Origin: Candidatus Kaiserbacteria bacterium RIFOXYB1_FULL_46_14
GTDB taxonomy: Bacteria; Patescibacteriota; Minisyncoccia; Phycocordibacterales; UBA918
DNA length: 64,000 nucleotides
Reading direction: 5' to 3'
NCBI GenBank assembly: GCA_001783525.1
Contig: MFMS01000006.1
Span: 21,074-85,073 of the forward strand
The notes beneath the pieces are model-generated. The model did not search any database. It had not been told where the DNA came from and was given only the letters and a program-made list of their open reading frames with translations. The translations under genes were made by a program, and so were the position numbers. This document shows, piece after piece, positions 1,073 to 63,281 of this stretch; within the stretch, counting starts at the first letter, position 1; every line of letters begins with the position of its first letter.

Positions 1073-1228
1073 GGGGACTCGACCCAGAATCACGGCTATT
1101 TTATTTCACTGCGTTCATAAAACAAGCTCGCGTTCTTGGTCGGCTTCTCGCTGTTTTTTACTTAACAGTCAAAAACATACTCCGAAGCTTCGAGTCCTGA
1201 CGAAAGCCAAGCAGTTGGCTTTCTCCAC

Positions 1229-1278
1229 GCGCACAATATAAAAAGCGAGACATCTGTCTCGCTTTTTATATTGTGCGC
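1229..1278. terminator. Perfect 24-2-24 palindrome / bidirectional terminator overlapping the tRNA-Arg 3' end
   Basis: gcgcacaatataaaaagcgagaca-tc-tgtctcgctttttatattgtgcgc. The right arm includes tgcgc, the 3' terminus of the tRNA at 1274-1278. A/T runs lie on both sides of the central stem. Confidence 0.7.
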
Positions 1279-18146: not shown

Positions 18147-18147
18147 T

Positions 18148-19737: not shown

Positions 19738-19749
19738 GTCCAGATAATT

Positions 19750-22008
19750 ATGATGCGGTTTTTACAAACACTCCTGCTTACTTTCTCACTAGTAGTCTTT
19801 ACGGCGGGCACCTTTATCGTACTTGCACCACAAGCAAGCGCCGCCGCACCTATTCCGCTTCCACAACAAAGTGACCAACAGCTGGATGAACCCGGCACGC
19901 GTATAAATACTCCGGAGAAATTACAGTTCAGTACCATATCTGGATGGGTATATAACACCCTTAAGGGAATTGGCGGTCTATTTGCCTATCTTGGAGGCAG
20001 TCTGTTTGATTACAGTCTTTCCTTGTTTGTAATGGACATGCGCGGAACCTCTGACGACTGGGGAATCACGACTGTGATCGACGAGATCTGGAAACTGGTC
20101 AGAGATATATTCAACCTATTGTTTATTTTTGGACTTATCCTGGCTGGTTTCAAACTCATCTTAGGAACTGACGAAAACGGTGCCAAACGTACGCTTGGCA
20201 CCATTATCATTGCTGCACTCTTAATCAACTTCAGTCTTTACGCTACCAAAGTGGTGGTGGACTTCGGCAACATTATGGCATCGGAAATGGCCACCTTGCT
20301 TAAAACCGAATCATCTGAGAATCCCACTAATACAAACAATGAGACCGGGGGATTAAAGGTGACTAACATTTCTGATAGTTTTGTAAAAAAAATAAACCCT
20401 CAACAAATCGTAGATAACTCATTCACATTAGAAAGAAGCGCCATTGAGGGTAATGTTATTGCGCTCAAAAGTGCCAAGGGAGAGTTAGACATAATGGACG
20501 CCCTAATAATGGGTTTAACATCTGCCTTTACCTTGACTCTGATCGGTTTCGTTTTTGCGGCTGGAGCATTCTTGATGTTTACGCGTTTTATGTACCTGCT
20601 TTTCCTGATGATGTTTTCACCAATAATGTTCCTGGGTTTTGTTCTACCTAATTTTAAGAAGAGAAGTAGTGACTGGTGGAACAAACTTTTTACGCAGACA
20701 CTGCTTGGTCCTGCCTACTTGTTTATGTTGTACATAGCTCTGAAAGCACTCGAGAATATGGAGGACATTCAGTCAGACAGTACCCTGATCAGCTACGTAC
20801 TGCTATGTATCGTAGTATGCGGCTTTGCTTGGGCCGCGCTTCTTGCGGCGCAATCAATGGGTGCCATGGGTGCCGATACAGCTGTCAAACTTGGGACAAG
20901 TTGGGGTAAGACAGTCAGAGGAGGGGTGACAGGGTTTGCCGGTAGAAAGCTCATCGGACAAGCGGCTGATAGTTGGAATCAAGGAATGGAAAAACGTGGT
21001 GTCTCTGAACAAAATGTCTTTAGACGATTTAGTTCAAACCTTGCTGGAGCAAAGTTTGGTGGTTCTGCTTCGAGTACACAGATACGAACCGCTGGGGAAA
21101 AAGCGGATCAGAAAAAGGCTCGTTATGAACAACTTTACGGAAAGCAGGTCAAGGGCGCAGCGCCAGGTACATTTAGAGGTGGGGTGATACAAGCTATTTC
21201 GGCAGGAACTACTGGCAGTCCGACTGATGATCAGAAGATTGCCATGGAGCGTTCTATCTCTGGATTAAACAATGAACAGCTTATAGAAATGCTCGGGGAA
21301 CACAAAACTGGTACCACTGAGTATGCTGCGATCGTTAAAAATATGTCTGATTCACAATACGAGACTGCCATGAAGGCCAAGCCGGAAGAGTTAGACGACA
21401 ATCTTAAGGACCAACTCACCAAAGACAAGCAAGCCGCAATCAAACAAAGTGGTTTCGAAGCGGAAATGAAAAAAGACGAAGACGCTAGGGCGGAGGCCTT
21501 TAGAAGCGGTGCTACTCCAGAACCATCCAGAAGCGATGAGAAGAAAATTGCCGACGCGTTCAAAGGTTACTCTGATGCCAAACTAAAAATACTAGGCGCT
21601 GACGAAATCGTTACACATGCCATAGATCTCAAACAATCGCAGTTTGACGATATAATGAAAAATAAAGACTACACAGATACCGAGAGAGGCCGTATCAAAA
21701 CAGCTCGCGAGGATGGCTTGTGGAATCTGTTTAATAAGGACGCGACCAGTAGAAGCGGTCTGTTTAAAAGCTTGCAGGACAAAGACATCGCAAACCTACC
21801 CAAGAAAATCATTACTGATGACCGCGCAGCTTTATACTTGACCGGTGGAGCCTTGAAAAAAATTGCCGACGACGAGAAGCTAAATGAAGGTGATAGAGAG
21901 AAGGTTAAAATTGAAATCAAGAAGAATGAACTTAGCGGTAGTAAACCTACGGCGGTAAAATACTTAAAATCCCCACAAGGTCAAGAACGATATGGAATCT
22001 GGAAATAA
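19750..22008 (+). CDS. Large polytopic membrane protein, possible VirB6/TrbL-like T4SS channel component
   Basis: Signal peptide, at least six hydrophobic helices, Lys/Glu-rich coiled-coil C-terminal half. Function assigned by context only. Confidence 0.35.
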   Translation: MMRFLQTLLLTFSLVVFTAGTFIVLAPQASAAAPIPLPQQSDQQLDEPGTRINTPEKLQFSTISGWVYNTLKGIGGLFAYLGGSLFDYSLSLFVMDMRGTSDDWGITTVIDEIWKLVRDIFNLLFIFGLILAGFKLILGTDENGAKRTLGTIIIAALLINFSLYATKVVVDFGNIMASEMATLLKTESSENPTNTNNETGGLKVTNISDSFVKKINPQQIVDNSFTLERSAIEGNVIALKSAKGELDIMDALIMGLTSAFTLTLIGFVFAAGAFLMFTRFMYLLFLMMFSPIMFLGFVLPNFKKRSSDWWNKLFTQTLLGPAYLFMLYIALKALENMEDIQSDSTLISYVLLCIVVCGFAWAALLAAQSMGAMGADTAVKLGTSWGKTVRGGVTGFAGRKLIGQAADSWNQGMEKRGVSEQNVFRRFSSNLAGAKFGGSASSTQIRTAGEKADQKKARYEQLYGKQVKGAAPGTFRGGVIQAISAGTTGSPTDDQKIAMERSISGLNNEQLIEMLGEHKTGTTEYAAIVKNMSDSQYETAMKAKPEELDDNLKDQLTKDKQAAIKQSGFEAEMKKDEDARAEAFRSGATPEPSRSDEKKIADAFKGYSDAKLKILGADEIVTHAIDLKQSQFDDIMKNKDYTDTERGRIKTAREDGLWNLFNKDATSRSGLFKSLQDKDIANLPKKIITDDRAALYLTGGALKKIADDEKLNEGDREKVKIEIKKNELSGSKPTAVKYLKSPQGQERYGIWK

Positions 22009-22588
22009 CAGACACGAGCTGTATAAAGCAGCCCCGGACAATATCAAAGATTTATACTCTGGTGAAGACACAGGGGAGCTTTTGTGGAACATAGCAATAA
22101 GTATAGGCATAAACGGGGGTGATTCATATAGGAAATTTGCACTAGCAGTTGGAGACATCATATTGGGTCTCTACAAAAAAGATTCTCTGGCACAGATCTT
22201 AAAAGACCGATTGCAATTAAATGTAGTGCAGATAAACGAGGTGATAACTAGACTTAAACCTCTATTAGAGCGCATACCAGAACTGCCTAATAGCCCCTCT
22301 GGGCCAGTTATATTTACCCCCGTAACATCCGGCCCTTTGCCCGTCGAGACTCCAGATTCTATCGAAGCCAAGCCGATCAACACAAATACCGAACCAGAAT
22401 CTGCGACCAATCAGCAAATAGCCCAGGTATCGAATGAACCAACCGTCAAACCACTACGCACATTTGCCGATGATGTCGGACTGAGTAGGGCACACGGCTA
22501 TGGAGCGTTTCGAAGTGCGGAAGTGAGCGGCGAGAGAGAAGACAAAGTAGTACATAAATCATCTCAGGATGACCTTGTTAAAAAGTAG
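21992..22588 (+). CDS. Hypothetical protein
   Basis: Overlaps the upstream gene by 17 nt. A remnant copy of its C-terminus lies at 23197-23300. Confidence 0.45.
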   Translation: MESGNNRHELYKAAPDNIKDLYSGEDTGELLWNIAISIGINGGDSYRKFALAVGDIILGLYKKDSLAQILKDRLQLNVVQINEVITRLKPLLERIPELPNSPSGPVIFTPVTSGPLPVETPDSIEAKPINTNTEPESATNQQIAQVSNEPTVKPLRTFADDVGLSRAHGYGAFRSAEVSGEREDKVVHKSSQDDLVKK

Positions 22589-22649
22589 TAGGTCTGTAAT
22601 GTAGAAAAAGACCTACTCGGATATATCCCGAATAGGTCTTGGCGGTTAG

Positions 22650-23108
22650 TTACTCATTCTCGCGCCTCTTCACTTCCCTAAGTGCCAGCACAGCAATCGA
22701 TTGAGTCTCCGTAGTTTCTGCTATCTCCCTAAGTGAAGCAGTTGGTACATAGGGAAACTTCATCAATTCATCGAATGCTAGGATCCTAACCTTCTCAGTT
22801 ACACAGTGCCAGTAGACATTGTGAAGCTCATGCCAATGTTTAACCGTGGGATCTTTCATCCATGCATGGAATGCCATCTCAGCAACCTTGGCTGACATGG
22901 ACTTCATAGCGATAGATAAAAGTTCACTACGTACTTTATCAGCTCCAAACTTCATCAATTCCTTAAATGCCGGTTCGGCGATCTCAGTCTTTCCACTGTG
23001 TGCTTGCGAAAAAAGAGTCCTTATTTGATCGTCGTTCATTTCTCTTCTCCTTTTCTTCTGGACCATTCCAGCTAAAACTAAGCTGGCACAGAAAATGGAT
23101 AAAGTCAA
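22650..23108 (-). CDS. Hypothetical protein (opposite strand, inserted inside the secretion-like locus)
   Basis: 152-aa ORF; the real start may be the internal Met (MNDDQIRTLF). No recognisable domain. Confidence 0.4.
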   Translation of the reverse strand: MTLSIFCASLVLAGMVQKKRRREMNDDQIRTLFSQAHSGKTEIAEPAFKELMKFGADKVRSELLSIAMKSMSAKVAEMAFHAWMKDPTVKHWHELHNVYWHCVTEKVRILAFDELMKFPYVPTASLREIAETTETQSIAVLALREVKRRENE

Positions 23109-23196
23109 ATTTTGCCGCTGCTCAAGCTTATCTTAAAGTATAAACGCGCTATGCAAGTCTTTTTAAGTTACTATTGAATCGCAAGAATTTAGTCGA

Positions 23197-23300
23197 GAGC
23201 ATGGTCATGGTACGTTCCAAAGCGAGGAAGTGAGCGATGAGAAAGAGGACAACACCCAATTCATCGCTCTAGTCAGGATGATATAATTGGGAAGTAAAAA
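23197..23300 (+). pseudogene. Remnant paralogous copy of the 3' end of gene 21992-22588
   Basis: ~100 bp alignable to 22490-22588. Translates in frame to GHGTFQSEEVSDEKEDN... versus GYGAFRSAEVSGEREDKVV.... Confidence 0.55.
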
Positions 23301-23390
23301 GTTAAAAAAACAAAGCGAAAAGTAGCTGTGCGGCGGCTTTGCCGCCGCACGGACTTGCAACTTTGAACTTTATGCTTTCAACTTAACTTT

Positions 23391-23801
23391 ATGAGATTTG
23401 AAGTACCACAATTCATTGAGATTGAAGATAAAATCTTTGGTCCTTTGACTTGGAAACAATTCATCTATGTTGCCGGCGGCAGTGGACTGGCGGTAGTGTT
23501 GTTTTTCTTCACACCATTCTTGGTGTTTATACTTTTTGGAATTCCAGTTGCCGCGCTAACATTCCTGCTTAGTTTCTACCCGGTCAATAATCGCCCTTTT
23601 TCAATCTTTATGGAGTCGGCTATTCGCTACTTTCAGGGAGCCAAGCTCTACTTATGGAGAAAACGTGGCACCGGTGTCTATCGCGGGGCAGCGGCTGATG
23701 AGGCAGGCACCCCTGCATATATGCCACCCTCTCCCACAGGAAACATAGCCTCAATCTCAAGGCGACTCGAACTTAAGGCCATTCAAAAAGACATCCACTA
23801 A
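23391..23801 (+). CDS. PrgI-like small membrane protein (T4SS-associated)
   Basis: MRFEVPQFIEIEDKIFGPLTWKQF followed by two TM helices, immediately upstream of VirB4. Confidence 0.4.
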   Translation: MRFEVPQFIEIEDKIFGPLTWKQFIYVAGGSGLAVVLFFFTPFLVFILFGIPVAALTFLLSFYPVNNRPFSIFMESAIRYFQGAKLYLWRKRGTGVYRGAAADEAGTPAYMPPSPTGNIASISRRLELKAIQKDIH

Positions 23802-23832
23802 GCACCTTGCGCGGGATGTTATTATTATCAGG

Positions 23833-24471
23833 ATGCCGGAGAAAAATAACACTACGCAAAATTTTGTGCCTCTGCGCGACATCAAAGATAATGTCGTGAT
23901 TTTAAAAAATGGCCAAATGAACATGGTGCTTCTAGCTTCGTCGATTAACTTTGCCTTGAAGTCGGTTGACGAGCAGGAGGCGATTTTGCGACAGTTTCAA
24001 GCCTTTTTAAACACGATTGATTTTTCTCTGCAATTTTATATTCAATCACGCCGCCTCGATATACAGCCGTATCTCGACACTTTGGCCGCTCGTGAGAGCA
24101 AGCAAGACAACGACCTAATGCGTATCCAGCTGCGTGAATATATGCAGTTTGTGAAAACCTTCACGACTGAAGTCGATGTCATGAGTAAGAGTTTTTTTAT
24201 TGTTATTCCTTACACACCAGTAACCGCCAACATCCAATCTAGTATAGGTAGTTTCAAAGAGCTGCTTGGCGGGCAAAAGAATGTATATTTTGATGACAAG
24301 AATTTTGCTGAACATAAGTTACAGCTTCAGCAGAGAACCGCATTGGTAGAACAAGGCCTATCGGCAATTGGCGTACGAACAATCTTGCTTCAAAGCGAAG
24401 AGCTAGTTGAACTGTATTATCATATCTTTAACCCAAGCGAGGCAGGAAACTTAGCACCGTCCAACAAATAG
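23833..24471 (+). CDS. virB4: VirB4/TraC-family conjugative ATPase, N-terminal fragment (split gene)
   Basis: FVPLRDIKDNVVILKNGQMNMVLLASSINFALKSVDEQEAILRQFQAFLNTIDFSLQFYIQSRR matches the VirB4 N-terminal domain. Stops at 24471, with the next ORF in a different frame. Confidence 0.6.
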   Translation: MPEKNNTTQNFVPLRDIKDNVVILKNGQMNMVLLASSINFALKSVDEQEAILRQFQAFLNTIDFSLQFYIQSRRLDIQPYLDTLAARESKQDNDLMRIQLREYMQFVKTFTTEVDVMSKSFFIVIPYTPVTANIQSSIGSFKELLGGQKNVYFDDKNFAEHKLQLQQRTALVEQGLSAIGVRTILLQSEELVELYYHIFNPSEAGNLAPSNK

Positions 24472-24475
24472 CAAT

Positions 24476-26275
24476 ATGGGAATTTTTGACTTAATCAAAC
24501 AGAAAAGTGGTATTGGTGAAAAGGTGATAGACACCGAGAGCGCTTTGATGACACTTGAAGATGTGGTGGCACCTTCAGCTATTAAGGTTCAGCCCCGAAG
24601 TATCAATGTTAGTGGGCAAAACGCCCGTGTATTTTTTACCGTCTCTTATCCTCGTTACTTAAACGACGGCTGGCTCGAACCAATCCTAAACATTGAGCGC
24701 GAGATGGATGTTTCAATAATGATCCACCCAATCGATACCGCAGAAACCTTGAAGAAATTTCAAAAAAAGGTAGCCGAGGTGCAGAGTCAGATAAACATGA
24801 ACGAGGAAAAGGGCATGGTGCGTGACCCTCAACTCGAGGCTGCCTACCGAAACCTTGAAGATTTGCGTGACAAGCTGCAACAGGCCGAGGAGAAATTGTT
24901 TGATGTTGGTCTTTACGTGGCTGTTTATGGCGCAAGTGAAGAAATTCTTAATGAGACCGAATCAGAGATAAAGGGTATTCTTGATTCCCGCCTGGTCTAT
25001 CTAAAGCCAGCACTCTTTCAGCAGGAGCAGGGCTTCCGCAGTGTTATACCGACTGGATCTGATGAGCTAATGGTGCACAGCAAGTTCAACTCGAGCCCAC
25101 TTTCTAGCTTTTTTCCATTTACTTCATTCGACCTCACTAGTGACACCGGGATTCTTTACGGCATCAATCGCCACAATTCTTCTCTAGTACTCTTCGACCG
25201 TTTTGCTTTGACCAACTACAACTCTGTCACCTTTGCTACCTCCGGTGCCGGCAAATCGTACACTACAAAGCTTGAGATTCTACGCTCTTTGATGTTTGGG
25301 ACTGAAGTGATAGTGATCGACCCCGAGAGGGAATACGAGCACTTGGCCGAAGCGACCGGCGGGCGCTTCTTCAACATTTCTCTTTCTAGTAGCCACCACA
25401 TCAACCCTTTTGACTTGCCTGATCCACAAGAAGACGAAGCGCCAGAAGACGTTTTACGCTCACACATCATTGAACTAATTGGTTTGTTTAGGTTGATGCT
25501 TGGTGGTCTTTCACCGGAAGAAGAAACAATTATTGATCAGGCTCTGCATGAAGTTTATGCCCTTAAGGACATCAATGGCGACGTCAGTTGGCAAGGTTTG
25601 GAGCCGCCACTCCTTTCTGACTTTGAAATGGTATTGGCAGGAATGGAAGGTAGCGATTCACTCATCGCCCGTCTCCAAAAGTACACGGCTGGCACTTGGT
25701 CGGGCTTTATGAACAAGCCTACCAACGTTGATATCCACCAGAAATTTATCGTTTTCAGCTTGCGAGACATGGAGGATGAGCTGAAGACAATTGCGATGTA
25801 TATCATCACAAACCACATCTGGAATATGATTAGACGCCGCCTCCAGAAGCGCCTTCTCGTGATCGACGAGGCTTGGTGGATGATGAAGAGCGAAGATACG
25901 GCATCGTTCCTTTTCTCACTCGCCAAGCGCGGCCGTAAATACTATCTAGGCATAGCTACCATTACTCAAGACGTTGACGACTTCCTTCGCTCTCCGTACG
26001 GCGTGCCAATGATTACCAATTCTTCATTGCAATTTTTGATGAAGCAATCAGCTACCTCGATTGATCTGGTGCAACGCACCTTTAACCTAACGGACGAGGA
26101 AAAACTTCTACTTCTAGAGAGCAACGTGGGGGAGGGCATATTTTTCGTTGGACTTAAACACGTCGCCATCAAGGTGATTGCGAGTTACACAGAGGACCAG
26201 ATTATTACCTCTGATCCTTCACAAATTCTCCAGATCAAGCAGGCCCGAGAGGAGCTTCAAGCGGCTCAAAAATAA
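24476..26275 (+). CDS. virB4: VirB4/TraC-family conjugative ATPase, central and C-terminal part with Walker A/B
   Basis: Walker A ATSGAGKS, Walker B LLVIDEAWWMM. Begins 4 nt after the upstream stop, frame 2 versus frame 1, no SD. Confidence 0.8.
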   Translation: MGIFDLIKQKSGIGEKVIDTESALMTLEDVVAPSAIKVQPRSINVSGQNARVFFTVSYPRYLNDGWLEPILNIEREMDVSIMIHPIDTAETLKKFQKKVAEVQSQINMNEEKGMVRDPQLEAAYRNLEDLRDKLQQAEEKLFDVGLYVAVYGASEEILNETESEIKGILDSRLVYLKPALFQQEQGFRSVIPTGSDELMVHSKFNSSPLSSFFPFTSFDLTSDTGILYGINRHNSSLVLFDRFALTNYNSVTFATSGAGKSYTTKLEILRSLMFGTEVIVIDPEREYEHLAEATGGRFFNISLSSSHHINPFDLPDPQEDEAPEDVLRSHIIELIGLFRLMLGGLSPEEETIIDQALHEVYALKDINGDVSWQGLEPPLLSDFEMVLAGMEGSDSLIARLQKYTAGTWSGFMNKPTNVDIHQKFIVFSLRDMEDELKTIAMYIITNHIWNMIRRRLQKRLLVIDEAWWMMKSEDTASFLFSLAKRGRKYYLGIATITQDVDDFLRSPYGVPMITNSSLQFLMKQSATSIDLVQRTFNLTDEEKLLLLESNVGEGIFFVGLKHVAIKVIASYTEDQIITSDPSQILQIKQAREELQAAQK

Positions 26276-26278
26276 CCT

Positions 26279-26731
26279 ATGGAGGTAAACGTCCAAAATT
26301 TGAAACGAACGGCAATAGTCTGGCAAACTTTTTTGCGTACATTGATGGTAACTTCGGTGTTTTATCTAGCCTTTCAACTCTACTTCGGCATAGCTTGCCT
26401 AACAGGAGCGGCCATACTTTTTGGCATAGATAGTTCTTTCGTACTTACCGGGGCAGACAAGCTTACTTTCGGTACAGCAAGCTCGGCCAGTGGCGTTTTA
26501 TTCATAATAGGTATGGTCGGTGCAATGTTGTGCGGCCTAATCACTTTTGTTGTCTCAGCGGCAATATTTGCGACCAGTAAATGTCGCATTCTCCATGGTT
26601 TTAGCCTGCTCATCCTCGCCGTATGCACCGTTACGTTGCTTATGCCAATTCTTAATTTATTTCCCATAATGTGGTTTTGGAATTGGTACATTGGTTGGTC
26701 AAATTTGAAAATTGCCCAGAGAGGAGCGTGA
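26279..26731 (+). CDS. Small polytopic membrane protein (4 TM)
   Basis: Hydropathy only. Confidence 0.45.
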   Translation: MEVNVQNLKRTAIVWQTFLRTLMVTSVFYLAFQLYFGIACLTGAAILFGIDSSFVLTGADKLTFGTASSASGVLFIIGMVGAMLCGLITFVVSAAIFATSKCRILHGFSLLILAVCTVTLLMPILNLFPIMWFWNWYIGWSNLKIAQRGA

Positions 26732-26743
26732 TATTATATTTGA

Positions 26744-27484
26744 ATGAGACCATTGCTAGCATTGCTACTCATGGCCAGTCTTAGCTGGCCACTTTCCACA
26801 AACGCCTTTACTTCTGGTTTGTTTCAGCTACTCAAAGTTGGTGGTGAAAGCAAAACAAGTGAGCAGACCACCACCACACCCGCCAACATGCGCATGGACT
26901 TGGTAGTAGAAGCAGAGACTTACACACCACATTTTTATCGTGGCCGAGCTGAGCCAGTAGCTGGCGCAATAATGCGCCTAGTAGCTTTACCAGAAGATAC
27001 AACTGCGGTGGTTAAGTATCGTTGGCAGGTCGGAGGAAAAACGATAAGCGAAGATAGTCAAACAATAAGAGTAACCGCCCCTAGCGGAGTCAACGAAGTG
27101 GTGGTGGATGTTTCCGCTTTGGACAAAAATGGCAACGTTGCAGGTCGCACTACCAACTACGTACCGTTATCTACTCCTTCATTGTCTTTTTATGAAGTGA
27201 ATCCTCTGCGTGGAGTTTCAGCAATAGCAATAACTAGCAATCTAACCCTAATCGGTGATGAGGTCACGGTGCACAGTGAGCCATATTTTATAAACTCTCT
27301 CTCATTAACTAACGTAATCGGTGAATGGAACACCGGCCAGTTAAACAATGTTCCTAACGACGACTGGAGTACTATGACGATTCTTCGTACCAACGACGTG
27401 TCCAGTACAAGAGTGACCCTGCAGGGTAGCAACCCCAGCACCCTTACCGAGACATTTGGCGGGAGCTTTATATTAGAAATATGA
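26744..27484 (+). CDS. Hypothetical secreted protein
   Basis: Signal peptide MRPLLALLLMASLSWPLSTNA. Confidence 0.5.
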   Translation: MRPLLALLLMASLSWPLSTNAFTSGLFQLLKVGGESKTSEQTTTTPANMRMDLVVEAETYTPHFYRGRAEPVAGAIMRLVALPEDTTAVVKYRWQVGGKTISEDSQTIRVTAPSGVNEVVVDVSALDKNGNVAGRTTNYVPLSTPSLSFYEVNPLRGVSAIAITSNLTLIGDEVTVHSEPYFINSLSLTNVIGEWNTGQLNNVPNDDWSTMTILRTNDVSSTRVTLQGSNPSTLTETFGGSFILEI

Positions 27485-28113
27485 AACGATACATTCTATT
27501 AATAGCCGTAGCGATGATCTTACCAGTTGTTGTCTTTGGTGCGGAAGGGACAACTGTAAATACTTTTATAGACAATATACCGTTCTTGAGTGGAGAAAAA
27601 ACTACCCAAGCCTTTGTGGACGCGATGTACAAACTAGCCATTGCTCTAGCTTCTATCATCGTGGTGATTCGTCTGATGATGGCTGGCGCTAAGTATATGT
27701 TGTCTGACGTTGTGTCTAGTAAAAGTAAGGCTAAGGAGGATATAAAGAACGCACTTTTTGGACTTTTGATTATTCTTGGAGCAGTGCTGTTACTCGGCAC
27801 CATTAACCCAAAATTAGTCGGGTTAAACTTTTTAAACGACGCGTCTAAACTAGACATAAAAAATCAAGACACCGACGTAATAGATAAGATTAAACTCAAG
27901 CCAGGAGACTCCATTACAGGAGCGAGACTCGCCGCCACATGCAACACTGGTCTTGTTTCAACACAAGACCAGTGTGTAAAAGACAACCTGGAACAGGTAT
28001 TGCGCAGCTGTAAAAATAATGGTGGCAGTAGGCTCAATAAGTATGTCACGCCCGGTATTAGCTATGAATCCGGTGCTATTGGTTACTCCTACTATTCATA
28101 TGCCTGCGAATAA
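27481..28113 (+). CDS. Pilin-like membrane protein (possible TrbC/VirB2-like)
   Basis: Signal peptide plus two hydrophobic helices (AIALASIIVVIRLMMAG, LFGLLIILGAVLLLGTI), with a C-terminal Cys-containing extension. Confidence 0.3.
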   Translation: MKRYILLIAVAMILPVVVFGAEGTTVNTFIDNIPFLSGEKTTQAFVDAMYKLAIALASIIVVIRLMMAGAKYMLSDVVSSKSKAKEDIKNALFGLLIILGAVLLLGTINPKLVGLNFLNDASKLDIKNQDTDVIDKIKLKPGDSITGARLAATCNTGLVSTQDQCVKDNLEQVLRSCKNNGGSRLNKYVTPGISYESGAIGYSYYSYACE

Positions 28114-28117
28114 CACT

Positions 28118-29344
28118 ATGTCCAAAAATATACTTATTATCATTGGAGCTACTACCGTCATACTTCTGATCGGAGCTTGGGGGTATTTATTTCTTTTTGG
28201 TGCGCCAGGTAGTGTCACGCAAGTACTGAACAATTTACGTTCACCAGACACCCCTTACGAACAGCCAATCACAGGTTCTACTGACACCACCGTTGCAATC
28301 GGTAATAAAAACTTAGCTCAACTGACCACCAAATCTACCGCTGGCTTTGTTCTCATTAAGACAGCCTCCGGATCAGCTGTCCGTTATGCAGAAAAGGGGA
28401 CCGGCCACATCTACGAGATAAATCTCACGAGCGGCACTGAAGAGCGTATTGGCGGTACAACATTTGCCAATACCGCAGAGGCCTACTTCAGTGGTGATGG
28501 TTCCGAGATTATCTTAGTTACTATTGACGGCACTGACCGCAAGGTCGTATGGCGAAGATCTATTGATTCAGCTGAACCTATTGCTTTACCTGCCAATAGT
28601 TACGACTTCGCCTGGAACGACGACGGGGTACTGCGTTACACGGTTAAAGAATCGGGTGTCACGGTTGCCTATGAGAACCGTGACGGTAATCCACAAGAAC
28701 TCTGGCGCACACCACTGTCAGATGTCCGTGTATTCTTCAATCAGTCAGAGACCTTCTTAGTAAACAATCCCGCACCAAGACTATCTGGCGGATTATATGA
28801 GGTTAAGGACAACACCCTAGTTAGAGAGGCCGGACCTGAATATGCATTTACGGGGATGCCCGACCCAACTGGCCAATTTTTGCTTTACCGCTATTTTGAT
28901 ACAGAAAACCAAACGGCAGTGGCAAAAATACTAGACACTTACTCTAACCAGGAAACCATATCGGCTTTACCAGCTGTTCCAGAAAAATGCGCGTTTAGTC
29001 CAGCAAAACAGCGTGTATGGTGTGCTTCCTCGTTTATGCTACTTTGGCGCGATCGTGAGTACTTGAACAAATGGTATCGTGGCGAAGTATCGTCACCCGA
29101 CTCTTTGTGGGTATCAAACTACAATAATTTTGAGTCAGCTAGTCTGGTCGTGGACTTTTCTGAAGAAGCTGGCTTCGACATCGACGTGGTGGATATGAAA
29201 GTTTCCGATGATGGAGCAATGCTTCTTTTCCGAAACAAGATCAATGACGCCTTATGGATGTATCGCTTGAGCGAAGTAAGTGGGGAAGTGGAGCAAGAGC
29301 CAACTAGCGAGGTGGTGGGTGCAACAACTACCGATGCTTCCTAA
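28118..29344 (+). CDS. Hypothetical membrane-anchored extracytoplasmic protein
   Basis: Start chosen at Met 28118 (MSKNILIIIGATT), directly after the upstream stop. N-terminal TM helix; beta-rich body. Confidence 0.45.
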   Translation: MSKNILIIIGATTVILLIGAWGYLFLFGAPGSVTQVLNNLRSPDTPYEQPITGSTDTTVAIGNKNLAQLTTKSTAGFVLIKTASGSAVRYAEKGTGHIYEINLTSGTEERIGGTTFANTAEAYFSGDGSEIILVTIDGTDRKVVWRRSIDSAEPIALPANSYDFAWNDDGVLRYTVKESGVTVAYENRDGNPQELWRTPLSDVRVFFNQSETFLVNNPAPRLSGGLYEVKDNTLVREAGPEYAFTGMPDPTGQFLLYRYFDTENQTAVAKILDTYSNQETISALPAVPEKCAFSPAKQRVWCASSFMLLWRDREYLNKWYRGEVSSPDSLWVSNYNNFESASLVVDFSEEAGFDIDVVDMKVSDDGAMLLFRNKINDALWMYRLSEVSGEVEQEPTSEVVGATTTDAS

Positions 29345-30792: not shown

Positions 30793-32187
30793 GTGGTTGT
30801 AATGGATATGAATCAAACCTCATCTGCGATTAACAACGGGTTTATCGGTACAACAGAGATAGACATAAAAAAACTCTGGGATGATGCTTTGGTTAATATC
30901 GAACTCTCCATCACACCAGCCAACTTCAAGACTTGGTTCAGGGACACTCGTATAGTTTCTATCGAAGACGGCACTATAACGCTCGGTGTGCCGAGTGTAT
31001 TCGTAAGAGACTGGTTGCGTGACAAGTTCCAATCGATGATTCTGAAGGTTCTGCGCGACCAAGCAACGTTTATTAGAGGTATCGAGTACGCTGTGGTTAG
31101 TCGTACCGAAAAACGCCAAGAGAACAGGCAGCAGAGCATCAATGCGTCTCTTCCACTTGAAGAGTACTACATCAACAAAAGCGACAACCTAAACCCTCGT
31201 TATTCGTTTGATACTTTTATCATCGGGCCTTTCAACGCGCTGGCACACACCGCCGCCAAGACCGTCAGCGAACGCCCCGGCATAACCTACAATCCGCTAT
31301 TTATTTACGGTAAGACTGGCCACGGCAAGACCCACCTCATACAAGCAGTAGGGAATCACCTTAAGCGTTCTGGTGCCAAAGTGTTCTATGTGACCGCTGA
31401 ACGATTTACGGTTGACTACTTCAACTCTCTTCAGAGTGGAACCGCCAATAGTTTCAAAGACAAATACCGTCAGTACGACGTATTGATAATGGACGACGTG
31501 CAATTCCTAAACAGCAAAGAAAAGACGCAAGAAGAACTTTTCCACCTCTTCAACACAATGCATGACAACAACAAACAGATTGTGTTTTCGAGTGATATTC
31601 ACCCGTCTTTGCTATCTGGAATGGAGGAACGCCTACGCTCACGCTTTGCGGCTGGTATGATCGTTGATATTCCAGCACCAGACCTAGAATCCCGCGCCGC
31701 TATCTTGCGTGCCAAAGCGGCCCAGAACAACATCACCCTTTCTGACGAGGTGGTTGACCACCTAGCTGAGTCGATCAACGGAAACATCCGTGAACTCGAA
31801 GGTGCCCTCAACTCGATCATGTGCCAATCGCAACTCCTGGGCCGAATACTATCTCTGTCAGAAGTTCAGGTAATAATTAAAAACAGTGCCAAGCCCCGCC
31901 GTAACCTAGCAGTATCCGACGTAGTTGATAAGGTGGCGCAATACTTCAGCATCGATCCTGCCAGTATCTACGAAAAGACCCGCCGCAAAGAGGTTGTGAA
32001 ACCACGTCAGCTTATTATGTACATTCTGCGTGAAGACTTCGCGGTTTCCTATCCAACTATCGGTCAAAAACTAGGCGGTCGTGACCACACCACAGTGATC
32101 CACTCCTGCGAAAAGATAAAAGCCGAACTTCAAAGAGACAGTTCTCTAGAAGAAGAGGTGACACAACTCCGAGCACTACTAAAATAA
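30793..32187 (+). CDS. dnaA: Chromosomal replication initiator DnaA
   Basis: AAA+ Walker A GKTGHGKTHL, C-terminal DNA-binding HTH (VSYPTIGQKLGGRDHTTVIHS). An alternative start at 30802 is possible. Confidence 0.92.
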   Translation: MVVMDMNQTSSAINNGFIGTTEIDIKKLWDDALVNIELSITPANFKTWFRDTRIVSIEDGTITLGVPSVFVRDWLRDKFQSMILKVLRDQATFIRGIEYAVVSRTEKRQENRQQSINASLPLEEYYINKSDNLNPRYSFDTFIIGPFNALAHTAAKTVSERPGITYNPLFIYGKTGHGKTHLIQAVGNHLKRSGAKVFYVTAERFTVDYFNSLQSGTANSFKDKYRQYDVLIMDDVQFLNSKEKTQEELFHLFNTMHDNNKQIVFSSDIHPSLLSGMEERLRSRFAAGMIVDIPAPDLESRAAILRAKAAQNNITLSDEVVDHLAESINGNIRELEGALNSIMCQSQLLGRILSLSEVQVIIKNSAKPRRNLAVSDVVDKVAQYFSIDPASIYEKTRRKEVVKPRQLIMYILREDFAVSYPTIGQKLGGRDHTTVIHSCEKIKAELQRDSSLEEEVTQLRALLK

Positions 32188-32277
32188 TCTGAGCAACAAC
32201 AAGAAAACCGCCGCGTCTAACGCGGCGGTTTTCTTTTATTTAATCTGTTGAAAAGGTGTTGAAAAGATCAGGTAAAA

Positions 32278-32462
32278 CTATCCACTTATCCACCAAACAA
32301 GTTGTTGATAGCAGGTTAAATTAAACACATTGGGACTAATTCTGTTGAATAAACCCTCACTAATACCCACCAATGCTGGGCATTATCCCCAGTAACATTT
32401 TGGAACCACCTCTAAAAAACCGTTATTTATCAACCCATAATAGACTATCCACCAATCCACAG
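32278..32462. promoter_or_regulatory. oriC-like DnaA-box cluster with an AT-rich stretch, between dnaA and dnaN
   Basis: Five or more box-like 9-mers: tatccact/ttatccacc (32278-32294), ttatcccca (32384-32392), ttatcaacc (32423-32431), tatccacca/aatccacag (32447-32462). Confidence 0.65.
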
Positions 32463-32546
32463 GGCTAATAATAAGAGCTTAGTTGGGTAATAGAAAAAAG
32501 AAACCGCCAACTACCAACAGGACTTCACGATGCTATAATTGCCATT

Positions 32547-33644
32547 ATGAAAGTGACTCTGAACCGGGATGGTTTTTATAATTTACTGGAGTTGGTGGGG
32601 CGAATCAGTACCAAACACATAACCCTACCGGTTTTACAGTGTGTGTTGATCGAAGCTAGGGAAGACAATAAAGTTGTTTTGCGTGCTACTAATCTCGAGA
32701 TAGCAATTGAGGCTGTTTTGGATGCTGAGGTTGGGGAGGTTGGAAAGGTGGCTGTTCCGGCATCAATTCTTTTACAGACAGTGAATCTTATTAACCAGAA
32801 GTCCATATCCCTACGTTTTACAGAAAACAGCCTGGAGGTTGACGGTAATGGCTCAAAGACACAGATAAAAAGTATTCCCCATGAAGAGTTTCCATCCATT
32901 CCGCAAGTGTCTGGAACGGGGCAGGTTATAAACGGGGCTTTGTTCAGTCTGGGTATCAAGTCCACAGCTTTTGCCGCCTCTTTGTCTTCAATCAAGCCGG
33001 AACTCGGCAGTGTTAATGTTTTTCAGAAAAAAGAACATACTCTAACCTTTGTTTCTACTGACTCTTTTCGTTTGTTTGAAAAGACCGTACCACAAAAAAG
33101 TGTTGTGCTAGACGATGCTATTCTGATTCCACAAAAAAACGCACTAGAGATTGCTCGAGTTTGTGATGTTGTGGGAGGTGACCCGCGAATGAAGGTGAAT
33201 GACCACCAACTAGCTTTAGAGTTTGAAAGCGGTGTCACCATCACCTCGCGGTTGGTGGCTGGTACTTTTCCTGATTATGAACAGATTATTCCAAAGGAGT
33301 ATTCGACCCACACCACTCTCCTCAAAGAAGACTTGTTGCACGCCTTCAAGAAGACAAATATATTTTTGAACAAGTTTTTCCAAGTAGGACTTAGCTTCAA
33401 CAAGGATTCGGTAACAGTGTCTGCGGGGAATAATGATGTTGGTAACACGACTGAATCTATCAGGGCCTCTACCGATGGTGAGGATCTCTCGTTAAACTTT
33501 AATCAGCGCTACATCTCTGAAGCTTTACCACACCTTAGCGACGACAGTATCGTTATCCATCTTTCCGGTATTGGACGACCGATGGTTATTAAGGGGGTGA
33601 ATGATATGTCAGTCCGATACCTAGTAATGCCGATGAACAAATAA
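32547..33644 (+). CDS. dnaN: DNA polymerase III beta sliding clamp
   Basis: 365 aa, three-domain beta-clamp pattern, positioned after dnaA. Confidence 0.9.
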   Translation: MKVTLNRDGFYNLLELVGRISTKHITLPVLQCVLIEAREDNKVVLRATNLEIAIEAVLDAEVGEVGKVAVPASILLQTVNLINQKSISLRFTENSLEVDGNGSKTQIKSIPHEEFPSIPQVSGTGQVINGALFSLGIKSTAFAASLSSIKPELGSVNVFQKKEHTLTFVSTDSFRLFEKTVPQKSVVLDDAILIPQKNALEIARVCDVVGGDPRMKVNDHQLALEFESGVTITSRLVAGTFPDYEQIIPKEYSTHTTLLKEDLLHAFKKTNIFLNKFFQVGLSFNKDSVTVSAGNNDVGNTTESIRASTDGEDLSLNFNQRYISEALPHLSDDSIVIHLSGIGRPMVIKGVNDMSVRYLVMPMNK

Positions 33645-45012: not shown

Positions 45013-45711
45013 ATGCTTAAAGTGTTCTGTGGTAACGACCAAATCAAAGTGCGACAACAAGCGCTTAGTTTTGTTGAACAGTTACGTGAGCAAGGATTGT
45101 CGATCGAGGCAATCGATAGCGACAATTATGAGTCGGGCAAGATCACCGAAGCGGCGGTAAAGGTGTCGCTTTTTGGCGGAGAAATGGCATGCCTTATAGA
45201 TATGCCTTCTATGGATAAAGAGATGTCTGCGGAAGTCACTGAAAACCTTGCCGTGTTGGCAAAATCCCAGCATCACTTTGTGGTGATCGAAGGGGCGTTA
45301 TTGGCCGATGAGAAAAAACTGTGGAGTAAGCACGCGGAGGTAGAGGAGAGCAAAGCGGGGGCGGCCACACGTTTTAATACTTTTGCGCTTGCCGACGCTT
45401 TGGCAAGGCGCGACCGCAAGTCACTCTGGCTGATTTGGAATGAAGCACGCCTATCTGGTATTGCGACTGAAGAGTTGGTGGGTATTCTATGGTGGCAGTT
45501 GAAGTCGCTACGTTTGGCGGCCTTAACCAAGAGCGCCGAAGAGGCAGGGATGAAAGATTATCCGTATCAAAAAGCGAAGCGTGCTCTCCTTAAATTTAAG
45601 GCAGATGAAACGGAGACGTTGTCTCATGTATTACTCGATACCTATCATCAGAGTCGTTTGGGAGGATTGGATCTGGATTTGGCCATTGAACGATGGCTTC
45701 TCCGTGTTTGA
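45013..45711 (+). CDS. Hypothetical protein, possibly a short DNA polymerase III delta subunit (HolA-like)
   Basis: Position directly after polA; weak pattern similarity to HolA N- and C-terminal regions. Confidence 0.3.
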   Translation: MLKVFCGNDQIKVRQQALSFVEQLREQGLSIEAIDSDNYESGKITEAAVKVSLFGGEMACLIDMPSMDKEMSAEVTENLAVLAKSQHHFVVIEGALLADEKKLWSKHAEVEESKAGAATRFNTFALADALARRDRKSLWLIWNEARLSGIATEELVGILWWQLKSLRLAALTKSAEEAGMKDYPYQKAKRALLKFKADETETLSHVLLDTYHQSRLGGLDLDLAIERWLLRV

Positions 45712-45753
45712 AGCATTGAAAAATGCACTAGACGCGGGTATAGTGTGCCCATC

Positions 45754-45826
45754 CCGCCTATAGCTCAGCTGGTAGAGCAGGTCCCTTTTAAGGACAAGGT
45801 CCCAGGTTCGATCCCTGGTGGGCGGA
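45754..45826 (+). tRNA. tRNA-Lys(TTT)
   Basis: Acceptor CCGCCTA/TGGGCGG, D-arm TAGCTCAGCTGGTAGAGCA, anticodon loop CTTTTAA, T-loop GGTTCGATCCC. Confidence 0.85.
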
Positions 45827-45877
45827 CGAGTACAAAAACGAGCACGCGTAAGCGTGCCGTTTTTGTTCGTCCGCCCA
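45819..45877 (+). terminator. Long palindromic terminator incorporating the tRNA-Lys 3' end
   Basis: tgggcggacga.g.tacaaaaacg-[gcacgcgtaagcgtgc]-cgtttttgt.tcgtccgccca. The outer arms are the tRNA acceptor 3' strand and its inverted copy. Confidence 0.65.
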
Positions 45878-45902
45878 CAGCAACAGTCTGGGGGACTGTT
45901 GC

Positions 45903-46105
45903 GTCAGGGATCGAAAACCTTTTGAGATATTTTGGAAGCGAAGCTGAACAAAATATCCAAAAGGTGTACTGCTCCGTAGGAGAGATACCCTGGTGGGCGG
46001 ATGTCTGTCAGGGATCGAAGGGGTTGCCAGGTATTTTGTGAACGAAGAGAAACAAAATAGCGACAACCCATACTGCCCTGTAAGGGAGATCTCCTAGTGG
46101 CCGGA
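45903..46105 (+). repeat. Two tandem ~99-nt structured repeat units, each ending with a copy of the tRNA-Lys 3'-terminal 14 nt
   Basis: Unit A is 45903-46001 and unit B is 46007-46105, ~65% identical. Each starts gtcagggatcgaa (inverted T-arm) and ends ccctggtgggcgga or cctagtggccgga. Each has an internal 16-bp hairpin whose stem sequence differs between units while pairing is kept. Confidence 0.6.
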
Positions 46106-46162
46106 CCTACTTTTAGCTGCGGTTCCCAAACAAATTTTGTGCTAGTATCCTCGGATTAATTT

Positions 46163-46624
46163 ATGCAAAAAATAGTCATCCTCGACAATATTCGTAGTGC
46201 TCATAATGTCGGCTCAATCTTTCGTACTGCCGATGGGGCAGGGGTGTCCAAAATTTATCTCGTTGGTTATACACCAACACCGCGCGATCGCTTCGGCCGT
46301 GTGTCGCCGGAAATTTCAAAGACCTCACTCGGTGCGACTGAAACCGTGGGGTGGGAACATATCGATAACGAAGCCGTGCCAGTTTTGCTGACGCGGCTTC
46401 GGTCAGAGGGTTTTCAAATAGTCGCAATCGAACAAACTCCAAGATCAATCTTTTTGCAGGATTTTGTTTTACCCGAAAAGGTCGTTTATGTATTTGGTAA
46501 CGAGATCGATGGGGTAAGTACAGCTTTTCTCGAGGCCGTTGATACAGTTGTAGAAATCCCAATGCACGGATCAAAAGAATCTCTCAATGTCTCTGTGACC
46601 GCCGGTATTGTTTTGTTTAAGTAG
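46163..46624 (+). CDS. SpoU/TrmH-family RNA 2'-O-methyltransferase
   Basis: 153 aa, SAHNVGSIFRTADGAG and a C-terminal knot region. Confidence 0.8.
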   Translation: MQKIVILDNIRSAHNVGSIFRTADGAGVSKIYLVGYTPTPRDRFGRVSPEISKTSLGATETVGWEHIDNEAVPVLLTRLRSEGFQIVAIEQTPRSIFLQDFVLPEKVVYVFGNEIDGVSTAFLEAVDTVVEIPMHGSKESLNVSVTAGIVLFK

Positions 46625-60192: not shown

Positions 60193-60456
60193 TGCCGAAC
60201 ATCCAAAGGCCGTCGATCACTTGTGATCGACGGCCTTTTATTTTTTGAATAGGGGAGGGGGTTTCATGAGGGATTTGATCCTTACTTTCAAATGAGCGAG
60301 CGAAATGAACAAATGCTCTTGTTCATTTCCAAGCGAATGAGGAAAGAAAGCTATACTTACAGGATCAGTACACCTTTTGTATATTTTATTTCGTTGTTAC
60401 TCATAAAATATCTCAAAAGGTTTTCAAATCCCTACGCACGTGCGGCGGGGTACGTG

Positions 60457-60518
60457 CTCATCGCCCACAAATAAAAACCGCACACGTACGTGTGCGGTTT
60501 TTATTTGTGGGCGATGAG
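60457..60518. terminator. Perfect 30-2-30 palindrome / bidirectional terminator incorporating the tRNA-Val 3' end
   Basis: ctcatcgcccacaaataaaaaccgcacacg-ta-cgtgtgcggtttttatttgtgggcgatgag. The right-arm 3' 11 nt are the tRNA-Val acceptor 3' strand. Confidence 0.7.
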
Positions 60519-60580
60519 GGATTTGAACCCCCGACCTTCGCTGTGTAAAAGCGCTGCTCTACCAACTGAGCTAATCGCCC
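60508..60580 (-). tRNA. tRNA-Val(TAC)
   Basis: GGGCGATTAGCTCAGTTGGTAGAGCA...TTTACAC...GGTTCAAATCCC...ATCGCCCA, the canonical Val(UAC) pattern. Confidence 0.85.
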
Positions 60581-62445: not shown

Positions 62446-62628
62446 CAAAACGTTAAAGAAAACAGTGCCTGCGCACTGTTTTCTAGTTTTGTGAACCGGA
62501 GACATGTTTTCGTTTCTTTTACTAGAAACAAAAACAATCGAGGTCGGGGAGAAAGTGCTTAGTAGAATTGGAGCGAAGTGAACAATTATACTTAGCAACT
62601 TGACCCCAAAAAACAAATAAAAAATCGC

Positions 62629-63161: not shown

Positions 63162-63281
63162 TGAGTCAATTATATGTCGGACTCGTTATTTCCCTGTGGT
63201 ACAAGGGGGATAGTGAAAATGACGTTTTGCTTGCTCTTGTCGCCCAGAACGCAAAAACTCCCCGAAGGGAGTTTTCATTTG

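Follow-up and report, generated by a model that had tools for sequence, protein, structure and literature searches.

The closest known system to the elements described here is RtT of E. coli (RF00391, rttR), which has the same architecture around an unrelated core. The 178-bp repeats of E. coli, which we checked, recur at a spacing of 178, tyrV being followed by three copies and a single copy lying between tyrT and tyrV; each repeat at tyrT/tyrV ends with the 3' end of tRNA-Tyr and holds a 22-nt inverted copy of the T-arm (86%). In the Rfam consensus for RtT these two copies pair with each other (GGGGAAGG / CCUUCCCC) and close a multi-helix core, and the model leaves the acceptor strand and CCA as a tail. 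The passages on rtT RNA in two published accounts describe it as a processing product of the tyrT transcript with a role that is still unclear (PMC3318445, citing Bosl and Kersten 1991; bioRxiv 10.1101/2024.07.17.603846).

Several other systems resemble parts of this arrangement. In CTXphi attP(+) and in integron attC, a site present in two inverted copies folds to give a duplex resembling the partner site, with extra-helical elements and a tip that is structured but variable, and the topology of site, spacer, inverted site, tip and site is identical to that reported below (PMC3442271, PMC4792948). Att duplications at tRNA genes repeat the 3' part of the tRNA, from the T-loop, directly downstream, with the near copy keeping the gene intact. 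REP/BIME elements and MITEs are short, multi-copy and hairpin-forming, occur as mosaics of module types with decayed copies, and are located at gene 3' ends, often within transcripts; they are recognized by constant terminal inverted repeats or, for REP, by an invariant palindrome containing GTAG alongside a linked RAYT. A retron ncRNA has an a1/a2 closing stem and msr/msd hairpins and lies next to a reverse transcriptase gene.

Tandem folded units downstream of tRNA-Lys

The window is the whole 64-kb stretch of DNA that was analysed, and it derives from a Kaiserbacteria-like patescibacterium. At the locus of interest the gene order is polA, a holA-like gene, a promoter-like site, tRNA-Lys(UUU), a hairpin, the repeats and a SpoU/TrmH methyltransferase gene. 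The HolA-like protein (45013-45711) is 75% identical to its Candidatus Kaiserbacteria RIFCSPHIGHO2_01_FULL_46_22 counterpart, and the promoter-like sequence is almost unchanged in the relatives L015 and L017. The features of the locus are listed below; R1 is the covariance model described in the next section.

45716-45744, forward strand: promoter-like site of tRNA-Lys, TTGAAA, 17 nt, TATAGT
45754-45826, forward strand: tRNA-Lys(UUU), the host gene; Rfam tRNA 63.8 bits, CCA not encoded
45807-45826, forward strand: X_up, the tRNA-Lys 3' end, T54-A73
45827-45868, forward strand: module c, a GC hairpin (45842-45857) preceded by an A-run and followed by a T-run; the palindrome X_up / X' is centred on it
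45869-45878, forward strand: X', inverted copy of the tRNA-Lys acceptor 3' strand, GTCCGCCCAC
45880-45902, forward strand: hpX, an inserted 23-nt hairpin, GCAACAGTC-TGGGG-GACTGTTGC, separating X' from T'
45905-45915, forward strand: unit A T', exact inverted copy of tRNA T54-G64, CAGGGATCGAA; 5' strand of helix P1b
45917-45965, forward strand: unit A P2, long hairpin with a bulged A at 45925 and an apical mini-hairpin AGC-GAA-GCT; sub-type CCTTTTG/CAAAAGG
45966-45971, forward strand: unit A J23, conserved single-stranded GTACTG (near-invariant RTACTG in the family)
45972-45982, forward strand: unit A P3, CTCC-GTA-GGAG, a GTA triloop hairpin
45984-46001, forward strand: unit A T-X, direct copy of the tRNA 3' end, GATaCCCTGGTGGGCGGA, with one extra A; 3' strand of P1b and P1a
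46007-46105, forward strand: unit B, 81 bits to R1
46009-46019: T' of unit B
46021-46069: P2 of unit B, sub-type GGTTGCC/GACAACC
46070-46075: J23 of unit B, ATACTG
46076-46086: P3 of unit B, CCCT-GTA-AGGG
46092-46105: decayed direct copy of unit B
At 46163, downstream of the repeats: SpoU/TrmH methyltransferase gene

Unit A (45903-46001) and unit B (46007-46105) form a direct repeat without gaps and with 71% identity; an earlier note on this DNA had placed both units correctly and had put their identity too low, at about 65%. Close to its start each unit carries CAGGGATCGAA (45905-45915 and 46009-46019), complementary at 11 of 11 positions to tRNA-Lys 45807-45817 (tRNA positions 54-64), and each closes with a copy of the tRNA-Lys end, matching at 14 of 14 positions in unit A (CCCTGGTGGGCGGA, 45988-46001) and at 11 of 14 in unit B (TCCTAGTGGCCGGA, 46092-46105); that note had read both boundaries in the same way. 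Unit B is without an X' or hpX of its own. The hpX hairpin is also missing from the close relatives L015 and L017, and a near-identical one is present in distant genomes (L066, L073).

X' at 45869-45878 has two possible partners, the tRNA-Lys end or 45992-46001. Because this segment is an inverted copy of the acceptor strand, the terminator hairpin comes to lie at the centre of a palindrome of about 100 nt, formed by X_up and X', which also takes in the trailer from the tRNA to the A-run. Module c scores as terminator-like on both strands.

As the ends of each unit pair, the units are three-way junctions, composed of P1, P2, the single-stranded RTACTG and P3. The outer-stem letters of the long hairpin P2 differ between A and B with pairing preserved, as the earlier note had observed, and compensatory changes are found across homologues too; the loop pattern common to both units, likewise recognized then, has 0 matches expected in shuffles. 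The short hairpin P3 covaries as well, being CTCC-GTA-GGAG in A and CCCT-GTA-AGGG in B. Folding, proposed earlier as a check, gives z = -4.3 for unit A and, for 45870-46001 (upstream arm, hairpin and unit A), -66.9 kcal/mol with z = -7.8; unit B by itself has z = -1.2 and is without significance. We note that the inverted acceptor-strand copy at 45869-45878, the second covarying hairpin P3 and the pairing of the unit ends had all been overlooked before.

Like RtT, the units lie directly downstream of a tRNA gene, on the same strand and in tandem, and in both systems the unit ends in a direct copy of the tRNA 3' end, with which an inverted copy pairs to close a multi-helix core. There are also differences: in Patescibacteria the core forms a three-way junction marked by RTACTG and a GTA triloop, its hosts number at least 25 tRNA species and include protein genes, and it is often accompanied by a terminator-like hairpin belonging to the element and by an inverted copy of the full acceptor strand, whereas RtT accompanies a single tRNA in enterobacteria and retains the encoded CCA. 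The RF00391 model, which scores 133-138 bits on E. coli, has no match at E <= 10 in 45600-46300, none at gathering score in the whole window, and none at E <= 0.1 in five related loci. Given this mismatch and the unrelated cores, the family is described here as RtT-like in its workings and not as a member of RtT.

Other classes of folded RNA fare no better. Neither ARAGORN nor the Rfam tRNA model detects a cloverleaf in the units, both calling only the genuine tRNAs, and the units share with tRNA only its 3' strand. A retron ncRNA was rejected, as a closing stem and a long hairpin are present with no reverse transcriptase adjacent, and no Rfam model of the small self-cleaving ribozymes hammerhead, twister-sister, hatchet and pistol matches. 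Inspection of both strands by eye for a hammerhead found a compatible topology, but the junction, GAA / GUACUG / A, does not fit the hammerhead core.

A widespread family with a conserved core

A seed alignment of 15 hand-picked units (MAFFT/alifold) contains compensatory changes in 20 of the 22 predicted pairs, and the covariance model R1 was built from these units. R1 finds approximately 31 clear matches in a GTDB set of 80 loci around holA homologues, besides the window copies, and at least 104 further matches in metagenome loci retrieved by motif scan. The search of related genomes and metagenomes with a covariance model, which the earlier note had recommended, thus yields more than 120 distinct copies in Patescibacteria. 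Many tRNA-Lys genes among the 80 GTDB holA loci have one to four units, and in the L066 array a unit recurs four times unchanged, every 153 nt. The element is retained at orthologous loci in relatives: L015 and L016 have a single unit with the inverted copy uninterrupted, and L010/L017 have one unit and a P3-only remnant orthologous to unit B. The same-strain contigs L001-L009 are all identical at the locus.

The core fold is real and is under structural selection, as the earlier note had proposed from units A and B. Among 98 distinct sequences, 91.2% of cells are paired, changes on both sides are seen in 27 of 27 pairs, and the covariation score is 0.50 as against 0.13 in shuffles (0/500 reach 0.50) and 0.035-0.10 in slid controls, figures that are somewhat inflated by the fitting of these alignments to R1; the independent MAFFT/alifold result agrees in direction. 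What is conserved as the core is P2 (the long hairpin), the RTACTG junction and P3, a hairpin whose loop is GTA. P3 is 99% paired in this set, with all four Watson-Crick types at every one of its pairs, and its loop is GTA in 96/98 units; a C-GNA-G apex of P2 is found in only 19/98.

Two P2 sub-types recur, CCTTTTG/CAAAAGG and GGTTGCC/GACAACC, and different sub-types stand in tandem at one tRNA in the window (A and B) and at L099 and L156. The outer-stem difference between A and B is therefore a contrast between sub-families and not drift after local duplication, and by their sequences A and B can be assigned to two sub-types of one family and are evidently not recent duplicates of each other. 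In orthologous units, where HolA is only 75% identical, the P2 stems are identical while hairpin c and the P2 apex have diverged, and identical stems beside diverged surroundings would count as selection on core sequence. Decayed copies are numerous, examples being the direct copy of unit B, P3 of the tRNA-Val unit described below, L020 and L057, and at L036, L069 and L155 each unit has its own terminator-like hairpin.

Searches of the window and related loci against Rfam 15, at gathering and permissive thresholds, returned only tRNAs and chance microRNA-like hairpin matches, and literature searches found no published description of the family. The units are apparently members of a large and undescribed family of folded repeats in candidate phyla radiation bacteria. 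A conserved, covarying three-way junction with no Rfam family would point to a missing family of RNA or single-stranded DNA structures and to a protein partner for it.

Arms that follow the host gene

The elements are not peculiar to tRNA-Lys, and the linkage to that gene, which the earlier note had proposed to check, is not exclusive: the host genes comprise at least 25 tRNA species together with rplK and lepA. Patescibacteria genomes are tiny and streamlined, yet three of the eight tRNA genes in the window have an element, and a fourth, tRNA-His, has the inverted arm alone; these structured appendages span 100-300 nt. The copies in the window other than those at tRNA-Lys are as follows.

60335-60435, reverse strand: unit behind tRNA-Val(UAC) (60507-60580); R1 63 bits, E 2.6e-15
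60423-60468, reverse strand: arms of the tRNA-Val unit, X' GTGGGCGATGAG (60457-60468), then a hairpin, then T' AGGGATTTGAA (60423-60433)
1064-1235, reverse strand: divergent element behind tRNA-Arg(UCG) (1273-1345); weak R1 match, 14.9 bits
Parts of the tRNA-Arg element, reverse strand: X' TGTGCGCGTGG (1225-1235), a hairpin, T' CAGGACTCGAA (1189-1199) and a longer variant core
63234-63246, reverse strand: X'-only case at tRNA-His, TGGGCGACAAGAG, 12/13 complementary to the tRNA-His 3' end

In the tRNA-Val unit, P2 and J23 are almost identical to those of unit A, and both P3 and the direct copy have decayed; its arms are reverse complementary to the 3' end of tRNA-Val and not to that of tRNA-Lys. 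The same is true throughout the family, in that the arms match the local tRNA end at every site, be it Lys, Val, Arg, Ser, Gly, Gln or another. In 36 metagenome units behind many anticodons the arms follow their own tRNA, several of them at 13/13 in both arms. The gene-end copies are 10-22 nt long, with one inverted and one direct copy per element, and other core types obey the same arm logic; orphan units bear tRNA-like arms.

At rplK and lepA the arms are the last 10-13 nt of the coding sequence, with the direct copy after the core, and the stop codon lies in the 4-nt centre of X-c-X' (ATAG at rplK, TAAA at lepA). These units are sometimes tandem and are placed between the stop codon and the intrinsic terminator of the gene, in the 3' UTR. 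In all of these comparisons, the arms belong to the host gene and the core to the element.

The inverted arm can also be found by itself. X' without a core follows the terminator at four tRNAs (tRNA-His in the window, where it comes directly after the tRNA-His terminator, and L051, L064 and L070), as compared to 0/173 in shuffled controls. Where the direct copy departs from the tRNA, X' agrees with the tRNA by 13:3, at informative sites too sparse to tell the models apart; the arms therefore look like products of copying, with P1a a relic and not maintained by compensation. The complementarity of X'/T' extends into the gene trailer and never covers the complement of CCA, for which reason a retroelement-like primer-binding site was rejected.

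The variable arms also set the family apart from mobile repeats of more familiar kinds. In MITEs the terminal inverted repeats are constant, whereas here they vary as copies of host-gene ends; and unlike REP elements, these have no linked RAYT or transposase and keep a strict orientation relative to the host gene. They differ from att duplications at tRNA genes in having only 90-170 nt between the repeats, with no integrase or cargo, in the presence of the inverted copy, and in having the same interior at many tRNAs and at protein genes. By Pfam there is no integrase, transposase, HUH or RT protein among the 40 window ORFs scanned, and clustering of the ORFs within 2.5 kb of 104 units brought out nothing beyond host genes (lepA, rplK, nusG) and a spurious ORF overlapping the unit. 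An integrase, for which the earlier note had proposed to look, was found neither among those 40 ORFs nor among the ORFs near other units. Viral contigs gave 1 and 0 matches for the two sub-type patterns, and the sole match (L097) lies behind tRNA-Ser, has arms that fit tRNA-Ser, and is in a context that looks chromosomal.

Folding strand, expression and spread

Among the matches listed, a sense tRNA lies within 450 nt upstream of 75/126 distinct units and an antisense tRNA upstream of 1/126. The wobble pairs are asymmetric, with 79 G:T against 30 A:C (p = 3e-6), as expected if the sense strand folds, and 20/28 units fold with a lower minimum free energy when read in the sense of the host gene (p = 6e-4). 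These asymmetries show that the strand under structural selection is the sense strand of the host gene, present either in the transcript or as the non-template DNA strand. An antisense gene ending at a bidirectional terminator was considered and rejected; there is no antisense promoter-like site, and both the wobble and the energy asymmetry favour the sense strand.

Whether RNA or DNA folds is a question on which the sequences point both ways. Conserved single-stranded junction nucleotides, kept P2 stems and 3'-UTR positions would count for RNA; upstream terminator-like hairpins, decayed copies, the rarity of G:T pairs (only about 3% of cells, 79/2486) and triloop caps would count for DNA. The hairpins end in triloops (GTA, often GAA), a kind of cap that characterizes very stable DNA mini-hairpins and functional single-stranded DNA signals and that is far less stable in RNA (PMC13037366), but with a C-GNA-G apex in just 19/98 P2 hairpins the mini-hairpin argument is a weak pointer to DNA. 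Of the first units, 43/58 lie behind a terminator-like hairpin with a T-run, so that their transcription needs read-through, and we found no promoter-like site for the units themselves; read-through sRNAs between dual terminators do exist (PMC8144298). The arrays L066 and L034 have no terminator before the end of the last unit, and from these arrays, placed before their sole terminator, and from the rplK/lepA units within 3' UTRs, we infer that the elements are inside transcripts in some contexts.

The units are best described as an RtT-like, modular structured trailer element that uses a copy of the host-gene end as its closing helix, and we propose, tentatively and with rather less than even confidence, that it is transcribed and processed. 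The order of parts is an optional terminator-like hairpin c, X'/T', the core and T/X, with the X'/T' arm sometimes split by a GGG-loop hairpin (hpX); X' has two possible partners, the real gene end behind it and the direct copy ahead, and pairing with the latter closes the junction as P1. By analogy with RtT of E. coli, the element would be transcribed in the sense of the host gene, either within its trailer or 3' UTR or when transcription reads through hairpin c, whereupon its sense strand would fold. Behind tRNAs, P1 would be a double-stranded replica of the 3' strand of the tRNA acceptor/T-stem, such that tRNA end-maturation enzymes could cut the units at each end copy; as the arms at rplK and lepA are not tRNA-like, processing of the tRNA type could not be a general role. 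The repeated gene-end copies would presumably be the points between which recombination or duplication lengthens and shortens arrays, and a process that copies the end of the target would bring the element to new sites. The many decayed copies speak against this interpretation, having the look of selfish DNA and less that of an essential RNA. It is possible, if rather doubtful, that the structured element is self-propagating, its core being inserted at a gene 3' end by a process that writes inverted and direct copies of the target around it; candidate processes would be recombination of a folded, target-replicating single strand, or snap-back or template-switch synthesis involving the transcript or the non-template strand.

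Several rival explanations draw on the same observations. The earlier note had offered serial integration scars as one of two readings, according to which larger tRNA-targeting islands or prophages inserted repeatedly and later lost their interiors. The arms are indeed copies of host-gene 3' ends, including direct repeats of the tRNA 3' end of which the farther is the more decayed, but the plain version of this reading needs an integrase or cargo, and neither is ever present at the units examined, with no integrase remnants in the 40 window ORFs scanned or in ORFs near other units; moreover, the same conserved, covarying core of about 60 nt lies between the repeats at more than 120 sites, the inverted copy is always present, and the same structure stands behind rplK and lepA, so that we regard ordinary scars as effectively refuted. 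The other reading offered then, a small family of tandem ncRNAs or regulatory structures, stands insofar as the units are structured and under selection, and fails insofar as they are not a pair specific to tRNA-Lys. A non-autonomous integrative mini-element acting as folded single-stranded DNA is unlikely, though it deserves serious consideration. A single-stranded circle of about 150-175 nt would pair T-X with X'-T' as the target duplex, with c and the core at the tips; a host or phage tyrosine recombinase would exchange one strand pair with the tRNA end, replication would fix the insertion, and serial insertions would build arrays with the oldest unit outermost. The order so predicted (gene-X, c, X', core, X) is the one observed, the direct repeats begin at T54, the usual T-loop crossover boundary, and the outer copies are more decayed; different sub-types stand in tandem at one tRNA (window A/B, L099, L156), units carry their own terminator-like hairpins (L036, L069, L155), and orphan units have tRNA-like arms. 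The terminator behind the window tRNA-Leu is almost identical to the one that closes the L066 array, triloop caps are typical of functional single-stranded DNA signals (PMC13037366), and CTXphi attP(+) and integron attC are mechanistic precedents (PMC3442271, PMC4792948), the X'/T' and T/X duplex being identical to tRNA T54-A73 and hence a replica of the target as in attP(+). Yet no recombinase adjoins any of more than 100 units or occurs in the 40 window ORFs scanned, the single viral-contig match is apparently chromosomal, and the same core has arms for at least 25 tRNAs, rplK and lepA, when site-specific recombination creates no new matching arms; the rplK/lepA arms have a 4-nt centre and no T-loop. 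The precedents are also imperfect, as the target here is a gene 3' end and not dif, the element is 100-175 nt without an ORF, and no Xer-dependent phage is present; there are no RYYYAAC/GTTRRRY boxes, the target is not attI, there is no IntI gene or cassette ORF, and the tip is conserved and the arms variable, the reverse of attC.

Two further explanations make less of mobility. A cis-acting RNA switch, in which X' alternates between the real gene end (X-c-X') and the decoy copy (P1, with the core folded), seems improbable to us. The X-c-X' hairpin would trap the tRNA acceptor/T-arm, or the last codons and the stop codon, and the core fold would report or control the upstream 3' end, be it tRNA folding and maturation or a ribosome at the stop codon. 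Two mutually exclusive pairings are available in every complete element, the stop codon is in the X-c-X' loop at rplK (ATAG) and lepA (TAAA), conservation of the junction and loop nucleotides resembles that of RNAs that bind ligands or proteins, and it is the sense strand that folds; but there is no evident expression platform or regulated downstream gene, only some tRNAs have the element (3-4 of 8 in the window), tandem and decayed copies are hard to square with a tuned switch, and X' and the decoy copy show no joint departure from the gene sequence. That arms drift without compensation would fit a mutational by-product, in which hairpins c and core would provoke intramolecular template switching in replication and so palindromize their flanks, X being copied into X' across c, and X' into X across the core. 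The arms would then have no function, and ectopic template switching or ordinary duplication would spread the cores. The four tRNAs with X' only and no core (0/173 in shuffled controls), the inclusion in the palindrome of the trailer from the tRNA to the A-run, and the alternation of X, X' and X around successive hairpin modules all agree with it. It does not account for a core that is deeply conserved and covaries, for an orientation that is strictly sense, for the sharp T54 boundary or for near-identical cores at dozens of unrelated sites, and we judge it to be more improbable still.

Arms rewritten for each host gene provide a comparative context for E. coli RtT, which is obscure in origin and role, and could expose a mechanism for the copying of gene ends; how the arms get written for each new host gene is the most interesting question. 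If the self-propagating reading were true, one core could colonize any tRNA gene and some protein genes, and do so harmlessly, and E. coli RtT would be an isolated relic of the same principle. In practical terms, the elements break assemblies at tRNA genes, give rise to false ORF calls, and can pass for integration scars in the mapping of genomic islands. We also note that at one locus the units are flanked by copies of the 5' part of tRNA-Ala, and are located upstream of the intact gene.

A second core and a different element type

Some units carry a second, longer type of core, of the form CGGCGGAG ... GCGAGCCGTGTC ... GAACGAAGTGAA ... CGTCAGGAC, which is found at the following loci from related genomes and metagenomes:

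L069, unit 2
L113, tRNA-Asp
L216, tRNA-Arg
L060

On either side of this core lie inverted and direct host-gene arms like those of the usual units, and the arm logic is therefore common to several unrelated cores.

An element of a different type is present in the window:

62447-62620, forward strand: element 3' of tRNA-Leu(GAG)

It is organized as a terminator (GAAAACAGTGCCTGCGCACTGTTTTC), GGAGACATGT, and a hairpin with the apex GGAGCGAAGTGAAC, which agrees with the apex consensus of P2, the long hairpin of the usual core. The terminator is nearly the same as that closing the unit array of L066, a 'Nomurabacteria' MAG, and modules akin to GTCCGRGGCGGAG... are also present in L066 and in three other compared loci (L034, L050, and L157). 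The purine-rich motif found at the P2 apex, GAACGAAGTGA(A/G), is also present in those tRNA-unit spacers that have no terminator hairpin (L066, L080, L101, L104, L118, and L144).

Partial and mirror-image arrangements

Two departures from the usual layout are illustrated by the following features:

Window 63234-63246, reverse strand: inverted copy of the 3' end of its own tRNA, without a core
L098 (oriented) 1290-1700: two units 5' of an intact tRNA-Ala

Core-less inverted copies of this kind, 12-13 nt long and directly following the terminator, are seen at the window site and at the compared loci L051, L064, and L070; shuffled controls gave no such copies (0/173). At L098, the 5' portion of tRNA-Ala(CGC), as far as the variable loop, is copied ahead of each of the two units. 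With its units upstream of the gene, this arrangement mirrors the usual 3'-end layout.

Genomic setting, assembly and annotation

The features of the window discussed here are:

17307-29344 and 30793-33644: run of large ORFs, then dnaA and dnaN
24476-26275: TraG/VirB4-like ATPase amid large ORFs
45745-46041, forward strand: 98-aa ORF over tRNA, terminator, and unit A

A Pfam search gave no match for the run of large ORFs surrounding the ATPase. Because dnaA and dnaN come after this run, the replication origin probably lies near 30-32 kb of the window.

The tRNA-Lys gene adjoins a holA-like gene throughout Paceibacteria-type genomes, with its relative orientation flipped between lineages (L017-L096 versus window 45013-45827). 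tRNA-Lys together with its units may have been inverted, perhaps by way of the inverted tRNA-end copies.

Logan contigs of the same strain (L003, L005, L008, and L009) break exactly within the tRNA-Lys T-arm, with a 25-nt overlap between contig ends, presumably as a result of k-mer graph ambiguity created by the inverted and direct copies. One ENA assembly from the same organism lists the 98-aa ORF as a gene (L002 2583-2879); this ORF is almost certainly an artefact of annotation.
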